Assembly (NCBI GenBank): GCA_963806535.1
Contig: CAWDYC010000008.1
Span: 139,614 to 203,613 of the forward strand
Direction of reading: 5' to 3'
Length of the DNA stretch: 64,000 nucleotides
From: Candidatus Bathyarchaeota archaeon
Lineage (GTDB): Archaea; Thermoproteota; Bathyarchaeia; Bathyarchaeales; Bathycorpusculaceae
A program made the position numbers and the translations under genes. Each line of letters begins with the position of its first letter. Position 1 is the first letter of the stretch. The notes beneath the pieces were generated by a model, which was not told where the DNA came from, made no database searches, and worked only from the letters and a program-made list of their open reading frames with translations. Below are positions 9,932 through 17,158 of this stretch, piece by piece.

Positions 9932-11389
9932 CTATTTTTTTCCAAGAGGAAATTCAAGGGTGAACCTTGTTCCTTTTCCAACTTGGCTTTCAACACTTAC
10001 CTTACCATTTAAGGCCTCAGTCAACTTTTTGACAACTGCCAAACCGAAACCTTGTCCTTTAGCTTTAGTTGTAAATAGAGGCTTGAAGAGTTTATCTTTT
10101 GATTCCTCTGGTATACCTACACCGGTATCTTGGACAGTTATCACCAACGTATGGTCGTTGTTTTCAGCTTCAAGGGTTAGTTTTCCACCTTCTGGCATGG
10201 CTTGAACTGCATTTGAAGATAGATTTATTAGAATTCTCTTCATAGCGGCAGGATCGGTCAATAATTTATTAAGGCAAGGCTCTACAGAATAAAAGACATT
10301 TATGTTTTCAGGAATTTTCAAGTTTGAAAAAACATCATCAACAATTTTTGTAAAATCAGTTTCTTCAATTGAAGCAGCTATGGGTTTAGCATAGTCTTGA
10401 AGATCGGTGACAATCTTGTTTATATAAAATGTATTATCTTCAATTGATTGTACGCTTTCCTGCAGGTACTTTTTAGATTGGCTATCAGGCAAATCCTCTA
10501 TTTCTTTTTTTGATAAGAACAGCTCGCCGATGATAGCTTGCAAGGGATTGCGGATGTCATGACCAACCATCCCCGCTGTAGCGCCAATTGCAGCTAGACG
10601 TTCATTATCTTGAAGCTGTTTTTCTAAACTCATACGCTTACTAATATCATTAAATAATATGCCCACTTTCCAGGGTTTTCCTTCACCGACTGGGAATGCA
10701 AAAACATCGTAATAACGGTTCAATGCTCTTGCTTCATTAGTGAAACGAACGGGCTCTCCTGTCATGGCGACCTTACCGTAGATCTGAAACCAATGCTCTT
10801 CATGATTTGGAACAAGACTGCGCATTAATTTTCCCGCTGCGTCATGTAATCCCGTCTGTTTCTCAAATGAAGCGTTAATTTCCAGAAACCGATAGTCCAG
10901 AGGCTTTGCATCTGCATCAAAAATCAACTCGACAATGCAGAAGCCCTCGTCAATCGAATCAAACAATGTTCGGTATCTTGCCTCACTTACCTTCAGCGAA
11001 AGCGTACGTTTTTCAACGGTTTCCTCTAATTTCTTACGTTCAATGGCATAACGTATCGCTCGAAATAGTAAAGTAGCGTCAAACTTTCCTTTGATAAGAT
11101 AGTCTTGCGCACCTCTTCGGACTGCTTCTAAAGCTACTGAGTCATCGTTGAAACCAGTTAAGACAAGAATAGGTAATTGTTTCGCGGATGCATGTATCTT
11201 TTCAAAAGTATTTAGACCCTGACTATCAGGCAGTCCAAGATCAAGCAAAATGGCATCTATGCCATTTGCTGCCAAACGATCTAATCCTTTTGAAAGCCGG
11301 TCGACGCGCTCTATTTTGCGTATACCCGTTTGTTCAGTTAGCATCTCTTCAATAAGCCGAGCGTCACCAGCGTTGTCTTCAATCAGCAA
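9932..11389 (-). CDS. Hybrid sensor histidine kinase (REC-PAS-HisKA-HATPase)
   Basis: LIEDN..D / LLDLGLPD receiver, PAS, HDIRNPL H-box, DTGVGI and GQGFGL; true start probably a few codons upstream. Confidence 0.93.
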   Translation of the reverse strand: MLIEDNAGDARLIEEMLTEQTGIRKIERVDRLSKGLDRLAANGIDAILLDLGLPDSQGLNTFEKIHASAKQLPILVLTGFNDDSVALEAVRRGAQDYLIKGKFDATLLFRAIRYAIERKKLEETVEKRTLSLKVSEARYRTLFDSIDEGFCIVELIFDADAKPLDYRFLEINASFEKQTGLHDAAGKLMRSLVPNHEEHWFQIYGKVAMTGEPVRFTNEARALNRYYDVFAFPVGEGKPWKVGILFNDISKRMSLEKQLQDNERLAAIGATAGMVGHDIRNPLQAIIGELFLSKKEIEDLPDSQSKKYLQESVQSIEDNTFYINKIVTDLQDYAKPIAASIEETDFTKIVDDVFSNLKIPENINVFYSVEPCLNKLLTDPAAMKRILINLSSNAVQAMPEGGKLTLEAENNDHTLVITVQDTGVGIPEESKDKLFKPLFTTKAKGQGFGLAVVKKLTEALNGKVSVESQVGKGTRFTLEFPLGKK

Positions 11390-11401
11390 GATTCTAATTT
11401 T

Positions 11402-11851
11402 CTATTGCTCCTTTGGAGGCAGTTTTACTATAGTGAACCAGAATTCTTCAAGTGCATGAATTATTTCAACGAATCGGTTTAAGTCAACAGGTTTGGTGAT
11501 GTAGGCGTTTGCATGCAGATTGTATGTTTTGATTATGTCTTCATCTGCTTTTGATGTTGTTAGGATAATCACGGGAATATGCTTAAGCTTGGGGTCTTTC
11601 TTGACTTCAGCTAATACTTCTCGACCATCTTTTCTAGGCAAATTCAAATCCAATAGTATCATATCGGGAATCGGGGCATCTACAAATTGTCCTTGCCTAT
11701 GCAAGAAGTCCATTGCTTCGACGCCATCTTTAGCGACGTAAATTTCGTTTAGTACTTTTGCATCTTTTAGGGCTTCTTTGGTTAACCGAACGTCTCCAGG
11801 ATTGTCTTCCACTAGTAAAATATCCACCGCTTCTGCATTAACTTTCTTCAT
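11402..11851 (-). CDS. Single-domain response regulator (Rcp1-like)
   Basis: ILLVEDNPGD, ILLDLNLPRKDG, LTTS, YITKPVD, FW.TIVKLP. Confidence 0.95.
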   Translation of the reverse strand: MKKVNAEAVDILLVEDNPGDVRLTKEALKDAKVLNEIYVAKDGVEAMDFLHRQGQFVDAPIPDMILLDLNLPRKDGREVLAEVKKDPKLKHIPVIILTTSKADEDIIKTYNLHANAYITKPVDLNRFVEIIHALEEFWFTIVKLPPKEQ

Positions 11852-11856
11852 TTCTT

Positions 11857-13734
11857 TTAATCACTCCTTTTTTGTTTGTTTAATGTGAAATAGATAGTTG
11901 AACCTTTTCCCACTTGTGACTTGATCCAGATTCGTCCGCCATGGCGTTCTACGATCCTTTTACAAACGGCAAGACCTATTCCGGAACCAGGATATTCTTC
12001 TCTGGTATGAAGACGCTGGAAAATCTTGAAAAGCCTATCGAAATATTCTGGGGCAATACCTATGCCGTTATCACGCACTGAAAAAACGTATTCATTTCCT
12101 CTATCTTGAGCTGACACGTGAACTCGTGAGGGCTCTTTTCCATGGAACTTTATTGCGTTGCCGATCAAATTTTGAAGCAGTTGAACAAGTTGCCCTCCAT
12201 CAGCGTTAACTACTGGAAGCTTATCATGCGTCACCACTGCGTTGTTTTCCGTAATTGACGCCTTCAGATTCAGAAGCACTACTTCAAGGGTTGACTCAAG
12301 GTTCGTTGGTTCAAATGGCTTGCCAAGTCTGCTAACTCGAGAATAAGTCAAAAGGTCATCGATTAAGCCTCGCATACGGTTGGCTCCATCAACAGCGTAG
12401 CCAATGAACTCGTCAGCGTCCTTGTCTAATTTTCCTTTGTATCTCCGCTCCAATAGCTGGACGTAACTTGCTACCATGCGCAGTGGCTCTTGAAGGTCAT
12501 GCGATGCTACATAGGCAAATTGTTCCAATTCAGAATTTGACTGTTTGAGTTTTTCCATGGTTAGTTTTATTTCATTCTCCATTGCGTTGCGTTCGGTAAC
12601 ATCTCTTGCAGCTGCAAAAACACCTTGTATGTCGCCTTGTGGGTTTCTATAAATTGATGCGTTGTACAATACGTCGGTAATTTTGCCCGACTTATGACGA
12701 ATTGCCAAGGGATAATCTTTGACAAAGCCTTCGGTGAAAACTTTCTGGTATCCTGCTCTTGCATCTCTGGGTTCAGTGAAATAATCGGAAAAATCGCTAT
12801 CGACAAGTTCTTCTCGAGTGCATCCGGTAACGTCTTCAGTTGCCTTGTTAACATCGGTAATCTTTCCTTCCTTGCTAATAGTAACCAGCGGGTCTAAGCT
12901 TGCCTCGATTAAGCTTCTTGAATAAAGTGAGGCAGCAAACAATTTTTGTTCAGCTATTTTCCGTTCGGTTACATCACGCGCAGCTGCGAAAACTCCCTGA
13001 ATTGTACCATCTTCATTTCTGTAAACTGTGGCATTGTATAATACATCAGTGATTTTGCCAGATTGGTGACGTATAGCAAGCGGGTAATCTGTAACGTATC
13101 CCTCTGTAAACACTTTTTTGTAACCGATCCGAGCTTTTTCTGGTTCCGTAAAGTAATCTGAAAAATCGCTTCCGATCAATTGATCGCGTGTGTAGCCAGT
13201 GACTTCCTCAGTTGATTTGTTGACGTCCGTGATTTTACCTTCTGCGCTAATAGTAACTAAAGGATCAAGGCTTGCTTCGATTAAGCTACGAGAATATAAA
13301 GAGACGCTTTTCAGCTTCTCTTCTGCTTGCCTACGCTCAGTGATGTCCCGAGCTGCAGCAAAGACACCTTGAATTTCTCCAGCCGCGTTCTTGTAAACGC
13401 TTGCATTGTACAATACATAGGTTACTTTGCCTGATTTATGACGAATAGCCAGAGGATAATCTCTTACATAGCCTTCCGTGAACACTTTTCTGTATCCAGC
13501 TCGAGCCTCCTGAGGTTTGGTGAAGTAGTCGGAAAAATCGCTTCCAATCAATAAGTCCCTTGAACATCCAGTGACTAGTTCTGTGGCTTTGTTGACGTCG
13601 GTTATTTTTCCTTCGGCACTGATTGTCACAAGAGGATCAAGGCTTGCTTCAATAAGACTTCGTGCATATAACGATGCAGAACGAGTCTCATCAGCCGTTT
13701 TTCCCTTAACCGGTAGCTTTTCGTTTTTCACCAA
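11857..13734 (-). CDS. Triple-PAS sensor histidine kinase (Cph1-like kinase core)
   Basis: Three PAS-PAC repeats; FAYVASHDLQEPLR, NLIGNAIKF, DNGIGI, GSGIGL. Confidence 0.95.
   Translation of the reverse strand: MVKNEKLPVKGKTADETRSASLYARSLIEASLDPLVTISAEGKITDVNKATELVTGCSRDLLIGSDFSDYFTKPQEARAGYRKVFTEGYVRDYPLAIRHKSGKVTYVLYNASVYKNAAGEIQGVFAAARDITERRQAEEKLKSVSLYSRSLIEASLDPLVTISAEGKITDVNKSTEEVTGYTRDQLIGSDFSDYFTEPEKARIGYKKVFTEGYVTDYPLAIRHQSGKITDVLYNATVYRNEDGTIQGVFAAARDVTERKIAEQKLFAASLYSRSLIEASLDPLVTISKEGKITDVNKATEDVTGCTREELVDSDFSDYFTEPRDARAGYQKVFTEGFVKDYPLAIRHKSGKITDVLYNASIYRNPQGDIQGVFAAARDVTERNAMENEIKLTMEKLKQSNSELEQFAYVASHDLQEPLRMVASYVQLLERRYKGKLDKDADEFIGYAVDGANRMRGLIDDLLTYSRVSRLGKPFEPTNLESTLEVVLLNLKASITENNAVVTHDKLPVVNADGGQLVQLLQNLIGNAIKFHGKEPSRVHVSAQDRGNEYVFSVRDNGIGIAPEYFDRLFKIFQRLHTREEYPGSGIGLAVCKRIVERHGGRIWIKSQVGKGSTIYFTLNKQKRSD
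12560..13674 (-). repeat. Three tandem ~372-bp intragenic PAS-PAC repeats
   Basis: SLY(A/S)RSLIEASLDPLVTIS...GVFAAARD(I/V)TER repeated three times at 124-aa spacing. Confidence 0.9.
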
Positions 13735-13984
13735 ATATAGGTTGCCTTCGTAATAATTTTCAATTAATTAGAGACTATTACAAAATATTTGATGATAAAA
13801 GCTTTTTCATTTGGTGTAACAAAATTGGACGTACATTATAAAATCATAAGTTATCGCTCAAGTACAATACCTGTCGTGGGGGGTTCGACATTTTTGGGGG
13901 CATAGTGAAGCATTAGTTAAGTTTAAAATCTTCTCTAAAGATATAGGTAGAGCACCAATCTGAGATCGTAGGGGAAAAGGGTTT

Positions 13985-16201
13985 ATGGTAAATCAGCCAC
14001 CGCAACGCGCACGCGGCGTAAAAGTACTCAAAGCCGTCTCGTCACCTCTCAGACTGCAAATCTTAAACTTACTTTTCGACAAAAGCGCTCTCTCGTACAC
14101 TGAATTAATGAACCAGTTGAAAATGAATCCCAGCCGAGATGCAGGTAGATTCGCTTATCACCTAAAATTTATGTTAAAAGCTGATTTGGTTGAGGCAGAT
14201 GTTGAAGCAAAAAAATATTATCTGACTGACCTTGGCAAAATGGTTCTTGATGTTGCTGATCGTGTGGAAAAGAAAGCGTTTAAGCCGAAAGGAATGATTG
14301 TCCGCACATCCCATTTAACACTTGAAGAGTTTGACGCAAACAAAATAGCTAATTCTCTAATAAAAGAAGCAAAAGTGCCGGCTGAACTTGCTCAAAAAGC
14401 AGCTAAAGAAACTGAAAAACGTTTAATCAAATCAAAAACAAAGTATTTGACTGCCGCTTTAATCAGGGAAGTCGTGAATGGTATTTTAATTGAGAAGGGC
14501 TATGAAGAATACCGCCATAAACTCACTAGAGTCGGCATGCCCGTGCATGAGGTAACAGTTTCAATTGAATCAAAAGACCAAACCACTGATTCAACTGCTT
14601 TACTTATTAGGGCAGGTCAAGCAGTTCTTAGCGAGTACACTTTACTCAACATTTTTCCAAGAGATATTGCTGACGCTCACCTTTCAGGTGCCATCCACAT
14701 TGACAATTTAGGCACATGGATACTGAAACCAAACGAAGTCAGCCATGACATGCGTTTCTTCTTCCAAAACGGGGTCAAACTCGACAATCCACTTCAAACA
14801 TCAATGGAGCCACCGAGAGATTTTGAATCTGCTTTGTCAATTGCATTCAATATGCTTTTGCATGCAAGCAAAGAAACAAATCGGGTCCAGATATGTAATT
14901 ACTTCAACATTTTTCTTGCACCCTTTGCTAAAGGTGCTGAAACGACAAGAATAAAGGAAAATTTACGTTTGTTTATTTTAAACGTAAACCAACAAACCGA
15001 ATCTACATTAGTTCTTGAACTTTCAATTCCAAAATCAACCGCTGAAAAAGAAGCAATGGGCCCACTTGGAAAAATCGCAGGAAAATATGGCGATTATGCT
15101 CAAGAAAGCCAATTGCTGGCCTCAATTATTATTGATATATTCTTGGAAGAAAACGCCAAAAAACCCCTACTTAATCCTAAACTCATAATTAGGATTAACC
15201 AGGACAGTTTAGCCGATGAAAACGCCAAGGAAATTCTATTTAAGGCACACCGATTATCTGCAGAGAGAGGAACACCCTATTTTGCCAACATAACAAAAAA
15301 AGAAACCGAAAACACTGTTTTCTCACCTTCAGGAGCTAAACTTTCAGCGGACCTGACAGGAGATTGGGAAACCGACACACTTCGGACAGGCTGTCTTGGT
15401 TGCGTAACAATAAATTTGCCCAGAATTGTTCAAGAAAGTGAGAAGGACAAAAACAAATTTTTCGAGCTTGTAAGGGAACGTTTTGAAGTTGCCGCTCGAA
15501 CCATAGGAATCAAGAACAATGCATTAAAGCAATTTGGAAAAAACTCCTTGCCGTTCCTGCTAAAAAGCTCCAGTGGAGACACTTATTTCAGGCTTGAAAA
15601 CTGCTCCAGAATTATCAACTTGGCTGGATTTAGAGAGGCAGTAGAAGCTTTTACCGAAAAAAACATTAACTCTGATGAGAGCCGCAAGTTTGCCGAAGAA
15701 ATCATTCAGAATCTTCTGGCCTTCAAACAGAAAATCGGCAGAAAACATGGAAAGAGACTGTACCCCGTCATTCTTAGCAATCCTGAAGCGTCTGAGAGGC
15801 TCGCCCAATTAGACATTGAGAAGTATGGAGTCGCCAAGACAAAGTTTTCGGGAACCAGAGAAAAACCATATTACTCAACCGCTAGACGATTCCAAGTGAA
15901 GGCTGCTGAAATTCTAACCATAGCACCCGAAATACTAGAAATGGCGCAAAAAATGAAGGGGCTAAGTGTCGGTGGAACCCTGGATATTATAGAGTTAGAT
16001 GGTGCTGAAGTAAAACCTGAAGCATTAATGGATTTAACAAAACGCATTATTGAAAACCAATCTTTGGAGTTTTTCACTTACAACCGCATCATCAGTTACT
16101 GTGATAACTGCAAGAAAAGCTGGTTTGGAACAGTTCACAAATGTCCATCCTGCGGCTCAATGAGCGCATTGACGACGTTCGATCGCTTCACTTCTATATG
16201 A
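13985..16201 (+). CDS. ArsR-like winged HTH + ATP-cone + class III ribonucleotide reductase (NrdD)-like domain, catalytically degenerate
   Basis: wHTH aa ~10-90; ATP-cone ~104-172; NrdD motifs ADAHLSGAIHI, GKYGDY, GTPYF, TGDWETDTLRTG..VTINLPR and C-terminal CxxC..CPxC; catalytic Cys and Gly positions absent. Confidence 0.85.
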   Translation: MVNQPPQRARGVKVLKAVSSPLRLQILNLLFDKSALSYTELMNQLKMNPSRDAGRFAYHLKFMLKADLVEADVEAKKYYLTDLGKMVLDVADRVEKKAFKPKGMIVRTSHLTLEEFDANKIANSLIKEAKVPAELAQKAAKETEKRLIKSKTKYLTAALIREVVNGILIEKGYEEYRHKLTRVGMPVHEVTVSIESKDQTTDSTALLIRAGQAVLSEYTLLNIFPRDIADAHLSGAIHIDNLGTWILKPNEVSHDMRFFFQNGVKLDNPLQTSMEPPRDFESALSIAFNMLLHASKETNRVQICNYFNIFLAPFAKGAETTRIKENLRLFILNVNQQTESTLVLELSIPKSTAEKEAMGPLGKIAGKYGDYAQESQLLASIIIDIFLEENAKKPLLNPKLIIRINQDSLADENAKEILFKAHRLSAERGTPYFANITKKETENTVFSPSGAKLSADLTGDWETDTLRTGCLGCVTINLPRIVQESEKDKNKFFELVRERFEVAARTIGIKNNALKQFGKNSLPFLLKSSSGDTYFRLENCSRIINLAGFREAVEAFTEKNINSDESRKFAEEIIQNLLAFKQKIGRKHGKRLYPVILSNPEASERLAQLDIEKYGVAKTKFSGTREKPYYSTARRFQVKAAEILTIAPEILEMAQKMKGLSVGGTLDIIELDGAEVKPEALMDLTKRIIENQSLEFFTYNRIISYCDNCKKSWFGTVHKCPSCGSMSALTTFDRFTSI

Positions 16202-16204
16202 AAG

Positions 16205-17158
<954 letters not shown>

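Follow-up and report, generated by a model that had tools for sequence, protein, structure and literature searches.

A 64,000-nucleotide stretch of a contig from a Candidatus Bathyarchaeota archaeon (hereafter the window) encodes, at 13985-16201 of its forward strand, a 738-residue protein (P0001) that, as judged by alignment, is paralogous to the archaeal-type anaerobic ribonucleotide reductase (RNR) NrdD, lacks its catalytic residues and carries an N-terminal winged helix-turn-helix (wHTH) domain. The protein belongs to what its alignments and a phylogenetic tree indicate is one ancient family, built of wHTH, ATP-cone, NrdD body and zinc (Zn) ribbon, and across the phylum its genes have RNR genes of two classes and pyrB/pyrI as neighbors. 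DNA precursors can be made de novo only through RNR, and in bacteria the regulation of RNR is well understood through the repressor NrdR; to our knowledge, hardly anything has been described of its archaeal equivalent. We put the odds a little better than even that the protein acts as a dimer that senses adenine nucleotides and regulates the transcription of RNR and nucleotide genes, which would make it an archaeal analogue of NrdR.

The open reading frame runs for 738 codons from its ATG, and Pfam placed on its translation HTH_5 (residues 20-70, 27.4 bits against a cut-off of 22), DUF7347 (residues 14-89, 31.3 bits, cut-off 27.6), the ATP-cone PF03477 (residues 105-176, 30.3 bits, cut-off 25.8) and NRDD PF13597 (residues 211-734, 238.7 bits, E 1.7e-70). 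Among the NCBIfam models, the NrdD equivalog TIGR02487 scored 260.1 bits, under its cut-off of 326.35, and the NrdR model TIGR00244 was absent from the matches of the protein, the N-terminus of which is a wHTH. The Pfam domains and the four ribbon Cys bear out the order of ArsR-like wHTH, ATP-cone, NrdD body and Zn ribbon that had been proposed in a preliminary description of this DNA. The coordinates of these parts and of the flanking features are collected in Table 1.

Table 1. The gene, its domains and its immediate surroundings in the window
Feature	Position	Strand	Description and basis
Promoter region	13913..13956	+	Transcription factor B recognition element (BRE)/TATA-like TTAGTTAAGTTTAAA at 13913-13927; block TATAGGTAGAGCACC at 13942-13956, near the expected transcript start
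Whole gene (P0001)	13985..16201	+	738-residue wHTH / ATP-cone / dead NrdD / Zn ribbon protein; open reading frame, Pfam and AlphaFold2 (AF2) model
ArsR-type wHTH, residues 14-97	14024..14275	+	HTH_5 and DUF7347 above Pfam cut-offs; recognition helix of the type ...DAGRFAYHLK...
ATP-cone, residues 104-176	14294..14512	+	Pfam PF03477; variant type 'VRTS...EEFD..KI'
Conserved linker, residues 177-195 (RHKLTRVGMPVHEV)	14513..14569	+	R182, G184 and P186 invariant
NrdD-like alpha/beta-barrel body, residues 196-700	14570..16084	+	Lacks the catalytic residues (E251, A451, C470; HIDN for HxHD); alignment to T4 NrdD
C-terminal Zn ribbon, residues 701-730	16085..16174	+	C706, C709, C720, C723
Shortened remnant of the glycyl-radical segment, ...FDRFTSI-stop	16175..16201	+	Position of the radical Gly is not Gly; alignment with catalytic NrdDs
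Convergent pyrB, aspartate carbamoyltransferase catalytic chain	16205..17143	-	312-residue open reading frame; conserved neighbour

The residues on which radical chemistry depends were absent from the NrdD body. In a HMMER alignment to T4 NrdD (1h78), E251 aligned with C79, A451 with the thiyl C290 and C470 with N311. When compared to 11 catalytic NrdDs from this genome and other Bathyarchaeia, the protein had lost the ENANL (NxN) substrate flap that comes after the linker in the catalytic enzymes, AGGQ had become NRVQ, TPAES had become SNPEA, YYTNSS had become YYSTAR, and the substrate motif HIHD/E had become HIDN; in Prevotella copri NrdD, the substrate triphosphate is bound by HxHD (PMC11226230). 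The chain stops at ...DRFTSI, 15 residues past the last Zn-ribbon Cys, where catalytic enzymes read ...SRITGYYQRV..., and all four Zn-ribbon Cys (C706, C709, C720 and C723) were intact. A search of the window's contig (C8) produced no NrdG-like match, and the genome's NrdG (TIGR02495, 184.5 bits) was located on contig C11 beside the true nrdD. Taken together, the alignments indicate a protein that has the NrdD fold but lacks every hallmark of catalysis. The preliminary description had read PNC as PNE at E251, placed the loss of the thiyl Cys at about 448-452, called GGQ, TPAE and YTNS degenerate, seen RxxGY replaced by RFTSI-stop, with the stop of a convergent pyrB 3 nt away, and noted no NrdG activase nearby; these residue-level observations were right in every point that could be checked, the open reading frames gave the same 3-nt gap, and the lack of an NrdG-like match extended to the whole contig.

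This loss was shared by the whole family. At least 120 homologues were found at 76-100% identity, all of equal length and with the same Pfam architecture, and a family alignment of 77 members was assembled that reached down to 25% identity. Cys was present in 0/77 members at the thiyl column and in 0/77 at the column of C79, while the four Zn-ribbon Cys were kept in 77/77. A remnant of R..G[YF] was present in three members, all of them without the Cys, and HxHD, the NxN flap, AGGQ, TPAES and YYTNSS were degenerate across the family, so that on the point of whether homologues consistently lack the catalytic Cys and Gly, which the preliminary description had left for checking, the answer was affirmative for the Cys and, these three members aside, for the radical motif. 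The conserved positions lay elsewhere. Residues H59, Y78 and G84, in the recognition helix and wing of the wHTH, were invariant in all 77 members, as were V106, R107, F116, I121, L125, E128, R161 and L168 in the ATP-cone and R182, G184 and P186 in the linker; in the barrel, only G235 and N477 were invariant. The mean frequency of the most common residue reached 0.70 in the linker and 0.68 in the ATP-cone, compared to 0.54 in the wHTH, and was lowest in the barrel (0.34-0.44). The former active-site columns varied, with E, T, S, N, D or V at 251, L, S, V, I or T at 451, and S, D, E, N, C or P at 240. The preliminary description had also pointed to a new CxxC at 470/473 in place of GNL and had suggested that the RNR scaffold might couple nucleotide pools or redox state to DNA binding. 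Both Cys are present in this protein; across the family, C470 was found in 16 of 77 members and C473 in 9, so the CxxC is a lineage trait, and redox coupling through it was rejected as a family feature.

Selection on the gene was measured as the ratio of nonsynonymous to synonymous substitution rates (dN/dS). Against the closest relative (locus L055, dS 0.68), dN/dS was 0.053 overall, 0.017 in the wHTH, 0.028 in the ATP-cone and linker and 0.065 in the core; values by domain are quoted for this closest pair only, because dS was saturated for several other pairs. The frame was 738-739 codons long in all 15 close genes, with dN/dS of 0.04-0.08 where dS was unsaturated. Every domain is under purifying selection. 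That every catalytic motif has been lost might suggest a decaying pseudogene or an annotation artefact, but this explanation, to which we assign next to no probability, is already refuted by the intact frames and low dN/dS of the close genes, by the more than 100 homologues of the same architecture at 76-93% identity and by the spread of the family over the phylum. Instead, an overall dN/dS of 0.053, the missing Cys in all members and the intact Zn ribbon in all members are what would be expected of a conserved pseudoenzyme and not of decay, as had been proposed from the sequence of this one gene. It is also conceivable that the old RNR barrel has acquired a new, non-radical nucleotide chemistry, given that the barrel has been kept, is under purifying selection (0.065) and is modeled with high confidence; this appears very improbable, since the old active-site positions vary freely with no new conserved set in their place, and the core is the least conserved part of the protein, with no invariant residue beyond the two named above.

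Identity of the window's protein to the archaeal-type catalytic NrdD found in other Bathyarchaeia was 31% (E 1e-80), compared to 24.5% (E 1e-33) for the catalytic NrdD of its own genome, and it shares with the archaeal-type enzyme both the linker and an unusual ATP-cone of the type 'VRTS...E.FD..KI'. In a maximum-likelihood tree of 118 rows, a clade of 88 rows held the HTH family with a Shimodaira-Hasegawa-like approximate likelihood ratio test (SH-aLRT) value of 98, and all 18 catalytic NrdDs fell outside it; this was a quick LG+G4 search from the ATP-cone onward, with SH-aLRT support only and an assumed outgroup, and the statement that the family is one clade refers to the 88-row clade alone. 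Nine NrdD-like rows branched outside that clade, eight of them in a neighboring clade together with catalytic archaeal-type NrdDs. The five of these tested against Pfam (P0199, P0208, P0225, P0251 and P0196) carried two ATP-cone stretches and no HTH, the two-cone proteins lacked the QCCR/GCR thiyl motif in the alignment, and P0199, the end of which was examined, also lacked the glycyl-radical tail, so that these proteins may represent an independent pseudo-RNR lineage.

The closest relatives of the window's protein were found in Bathyarchaeia, where about 131 of 201 genomes of the class gave strong matches among the matches listed, about 124 of them spanning the query from residue 30 or earlier to residue 690 or later; one family of 43 genomes (f18) gave weak scores only, at the level of catalytic NrdDs. 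In a phylum-wide sample of 301 genomes, the family was present in 43/43 genomes of f33, 24/25 of f39, 8/8 of f40, 11/11 of f41, 18/18 of f46 and 15/17 of f37, and was not found in f42 (0/20), f43 (0/6), f48 (0/10) or f50 (0/10). Archaeal AmoA was detected in both f33 genomes tested, which identifies f33 as ammonia oxidizers. Two f33 genomes and one f46 genome (G365, G201 and G216) produced no NRDD-family match outside the gene, indicating that the dead paralogue is kept there without a catalytic class III enzyme. Leads from the ESM Atlas, and no more than leads, extended to look-alike clusters that carry the automatic names 'ArsR family transcriptional regulator' (Nitrososphaerota) and 'anaerobic ribonucleoside-triphosphate reductase family protein' (Bathyarchaeota), to DUF7347+NRDD clusters in Promethearchaeota and to wHTH+NRDD clusters in Nanobdellota. 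Two unusual frames were encountered among the relatives: a catalytic NrdD in a 1105-residue frame with two NRDD halves about 1 kb apart, intein-like in appearance (G250:C1:214349-217258), and a pseudo-NrdD in a 1668-residue open frame with a long, partly masked N-terminal extension (L017:6059-11065).

An AF2 model built on the 77-sequence alignment had a mean predicted local distance difference test score (pLDDT) of 89.2 and a predicted template-modeling (TM) score of 0.80, with only the N-terminus and the tether at residues 99-102 under a pLDDT of 50. Residues 6-80 formed four helices followed by two strands. When the model was searched with Foldseek, the top matches in the PDB were all class III RNRs (S. 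thermophilus 9d3x/9dca, P. copri 8p2s, T. maritima 4coj and T4 1hk8), with E-values of 2e-25 to 5e-20 and target-normalized TM-scores of 0.61-0.74, and further hits to class III RNRs extended to an E-value of 1e-18; the structure prediction suggested in the preliminary description therefore returned the class III RNR fold. A homodimer model reached an interface score (ipSAE) of 0.51 (0.51, 0.51 and 0.54 in separate runs) compared to 0.00 for the best control; the partner pLDDT did not fall below 79, the runs had at least 94% of their contacts in common, and the modeled interface was formed by barrel helices 202-215, 269-297 and 325-337. The mark used for this tool was reached by 20 of 30 solved homodimers and by 1 of 23 monomers, and since solved NrdD dimers exist, the pass may reflect likeness to them. 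The barrel is thus predicted to homodimerize still.

At 10 loci in Bathyarchaeia, picked because they held two adjacent hits and so not a random sample, the gene lay immediately 5′ of a same-strand catalytic nrdD (about 700 residues, with the motifs QCCR and SRITGYY), and beyond this nrdD came a convergent pyrB and then pyrI; one of these nrdD neighbors scored 520.5 bits on TIGR02487. Four more adjacent double hits, in family f4, were seen as coordinates only (G062, G110, G118 and G124). Among 25 loci of other families of the phylum, the dead paralogue was followed by nrdD in 2, one of which also had nrdG, and pyrB and/or pyrI adjoined the gene in 13. In the ammonia oxidizers (f33), an RNR gene of about 883 residues adjoined in 22/22 loci, directly downstream on the same strand at a distance of 194-438 nt in 21 of them and divergent in one; the one such neighbor tested matched Ribonuc_red_lgC and the ATP-cone and scored 715.6 bits on the NrdJ_Z model TIGR02504. 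Convergent pyrB was present within 400 nt in 68 of the 73 related loci that had at least 1 kb of downstream sequence, and directly 3′ in all 12 of the loci L003-L014, of which L003 is the window's own copy.

The window itself departs from this arrangement, as catalytic nrdD is missing from the cluster in its own family. The genome was found to have no class I or class II RNR, and in answer to the question raised in the preliminary description of a separate, active RNR, it carries an nrdR-nrdD-nrdG operon on contig C11 (L001:766-4028, minus strand), all three genes of which pass their NCBIfam equivalog cut-offs (NrdD 569.5 bits on TIGR02487; NrdR 153.9 bits, cut-off 124.65). The ancestral neighboring nrdD has been lost here and replaced by this operon elsewhere in the genome. 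Because NrdR is rare in archaea, with 6 archaeal counts compared to 1268 bacterial ones in Table 2 of the 2009 RNRdb paper (PMC2795772), the operon may have come in as a bacterial-type import and taken the place of the archaeal-type nrdD. An inverted repeat, TTGTATA-N8-TATACAA, occurs about 25-45 nt upstream of the C11 nrdR, and pyrI, which adjoins pyrB in most other lineages, is located apart from it in this genome (C11:53916-54371).

Adjacency to RNR genes could also be explained if the protein were a non-catalytic regulatory subunit of a catalytic RNR, in an NrdD heterodimer or an NrdJ complex, that tunes activity or radical activation and uses its HTH for protein contacts or tethering. This would fit a paralogue 31% identical to archaeal-type NrdD and encoded right beside nrdD or nrdJ in many lineages, and a mixed dimer is sterically conceivable, as the NrdD-type dimer interface is still predicted. 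We consider this an unlikely account, however, as the family persists in the three genomes without any other NRDD match, which also counts against the role of regulatory partner of the true NrdD that the preliminary description had offered, at least as a general one. In addition, the gene persists in the present genome after the loss of the neighboring archaeal-type nrdD, and the wHTH, with its ArsR-like recognition helix invariant at H59, is under the strongest purifying selection (0.017) of any part of the protein. The dimer architecture of class II RNR (NrdJ) differs, which is a further point against a shared complex.

A transcription regulator of the kind proposed at the outset would accommodate these features. 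In the proposed mechanism, the NrdD body would serve as a dimerization scaffold and the ATP-cone would bind adenine nucleotides (ATP/dATP), like its counterparts in RNRs and NrdR. A change of conformation or oligomer driven by the nucleotide would reposition the two flexibly tethered ArsR-type wHTH domains, and this repositioning would switch DNA binding at RNR promoters and possibly at those of pyrBI and of the gene itself. In P. copri NrdD, the flap and the radical domain become disordered and the oligomer shifts when dATP is in the cone (PMC11226230). The NrdR-like, nucleotide-sensing DNA binder of the preliminary description has thus gained strong contextual support, since RNR genes of two classes adjoin the gene in distant lineages and the ATP-cone, linker and HTH are its best-conserved parts; that the protein binds DNA and nucleotides is what we infer. 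A broader version, in which a phylum-wide and possibly pan-archaeal master regulator of deoxynucleoside triphosphate (dNTP) supply was made from a dead RNR, kept the ATP-cone and the specificity site at the dimer interface, reads ATP/dATP and dNTP balance, sets transcription of whichever RNR class its host uses (class III in Bathyarchaeia, B12-dependent class II in ammonia oxidizers) and maybe of pyrBI, and fills the role of bacterial NrdR, is offered as a speculative extension that we would not expect to hold in full.

Several observations weigh against the protein being such a regulator. In the window, no RNR gene adjoins and pyrB is the neighbor, and a canonical NrdR already accompanies the genome's only nrdD-nrdG; in the sample of 25 loci from other families, 12 had none of the queried nucleotide genes nearby. 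The ArsR/SmtB model NF033788 (HTH_metalloreg) scored 31.6 bits, under its cut-off of 55. At Pfam model positions 5-6 of the ATP-cone, mapped by hand from the coordinates, T108-S109 stand in place of the canonical K-R pair, so ATP/dATP as the ligand is uncertain; the invariant R107 lies one position before the missing pair by the same mapping, and the variant without K-R is common to the catalytic archaeal-type NrdDs. A scan of the genome with TATAGGTAGAGCACC found no second good copy, as the gene's own site alone matched with 1 mismatch, two others matched with 2, and 66 hits were obtained at up to 3 mismatches. No DNA motif common to the gene's own promoter and the RNR or pyrB promoters was found, and for the palindromes upstream of f33 nrdJ and bathyarchaeal nrdD, described below, no tie to this protein was established.

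The lack of a regulon motif would fit a DNA-associated dNTP/ATP sensor with a role away from promoters, for example a nucleoid or replication-origin factor that couples precursors to replication or repair. The same logic of wHTH and ATP-cone fits such a factor, and a match in every sampled genome of f33 (43/43), f46 (18/18), f41 (11/11) and f40 (8/8) would suit a housekeeping protein. The loci read showed no tie to replication genes, and the specific RNR adjacency in the ammonia oxidizers, on the same strand and across a promoter-bearing spacer of 194-438 nt, is the classic signature of a local regulator, so we hold this alternative to be rather improbable as well and retain the transcription regulator of RNR and nucleotide genes as our preferred explanation.

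The motif searches were not counted as evidence in this weighing. The TTAGTTAAGTTTAAA / TATAGGTAGAGCACC footprint at the gene's own promoter was conserved over 78 distinct upstream regions of close relatives, and the TATAGGTAGAGCACC block is a candidate operator or 5′ leader. In 21 upstream regions of f33, k-mer enrichment produced only promoter and ribosome-binding-site words and phylogenetic carry-over. At the f33 loci (L027-L054), the conserved palindromes GTATGAAnTTCATAG and GTGTCAA-N5-TTGACAC were observed about 85-125 nt upstream of nrdJ, 5′ of a TATA-like box; of 5 genomes scanned for GTATGAAnTTCATAG, 3 had it as a single copy without mismatch, and at 2 mismatches it was hardly more frequent than a reversed-pattern control. 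These palindromes are candidate operators for the adjacent regulator. The words TGTATATACA and TGTATACA, upstream of bathyarchaeal nrdD or of the pseudo-nrdD pair, were set aside as they may be mere TATA boxes, with TGTATACA occurring 29 times in this genome. At L027, L028, L035 and related f33 loci, a conserved coding-like block for a small CxxC peptide (...KCPSCGQKLS...) lies 150-260 nt upstream of the family's own gene, followed in some genomes, such as at L046, by arrays of an AAAAnTGATC repeat.

Upstream of the gene, the window carries at 9932-13734 (minus strand) a divergent cluster of a three-PAS histidine kinase, a single-domain response regulator and a receiver-PAS kinase. These two-component genes were considered as partners and rejected, as they recur upstream in only 3 of 80 related loci and are therefore probably unrelated.

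If the proposed function is correct, the ATP-cone would have this family as its third setting, after RNRs and NrdR, and the family would be a clear example of an enzyme whose allosteric scaffold has outlasted its catalytic function. It is a candidate for the archaeal NrdR role, being present in all 43 f33 genomes sampled and widespread in Bathyarchaeia and other Thermoproteota, and the cultivated ammonia oxidizers make the regulator idea directly testable. Databases label the family 'anaerobic ribonucleotide reductase' or 'ArsR regulator', and under the former name metabolic reconstructions may wrongly credit aerobes with a class III RNR. A search of full-text literature, with subscription papers and supplements outside its reach, turned up no account of an NrdD that is fused to an HTH or catalytically dead, and one RNR paper describes the ATP-cone as essentially restricted to RNRs and NrdR.

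The closest known system is NrdR, which likewise places an ATP-cone next to a nucleic-acid-binding module and is encoded beside RNR genes, as the present family is in relatives (22/22 f33 loci, the 10 selected bathyarchaeal loci and 2 of 25 others) and not in the window. The proposed logic is also the same, in that adenine nucleotides at the ATP-cone would set DNA binding through a change of oligomer or conformation, the mechanism given for NrdR in PMC9110341. The two proteins differ in that NrdR has an N-terminal Zn ribbon where an ArsR-type wHTH is found here, in the dead RNR body of about 500 residues and the C-terminal RNR-type Zn ribbon attached here, and in the lack here of a TIGR00244 match and of the K-R pair. 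As a true NrdR coexists in this genome, the two are not replacements for each other here. With the NrdDs that carry an ATP-cone (P. copri 8p2s, S. thermophilus 9d3x and the archaeal type), the protein shares the fold, the four-Cys Zn ribbon and the predicted dimer interface region, and with the archaeal type also the variant ATP-cone and linker; unlike the catalytic enzymes, it has lost both Cys, HxHD, the NxN flap and the glycyl-radical domain, has gained an N-terminal wHTH, has no activase gene nearby and scores under the NrdD equivalog cut-off. ArsR/SmtB repressors resemble it in the HTH, with HTH_5 above its Pfam cut-off and a recognition helix of the '...YHLK.L...GLV' type, which we take to be that of ArsR/SmtB, whereas the sensor here would be the appended ATP-cone and RNR body and not a metal site within an HTH dimer, dimerization is predicted through the RNR body, and HTH_metalloreg remained under its cut-off. 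Enzyme folds have been reused as the ligand-sensing or dimerizing part of DNA-binding proteins in BirA, PutA, NadR and the ROK repressors; the present case differs in that a radical enzyme is fully dead and its allosteric domain, not its active site, has presumably been reused. The family is probably a new ATP-cone-based RNR regulator and an enzyme-derived transcription factor, similar in outline to NrdR and outside the NrdR family.

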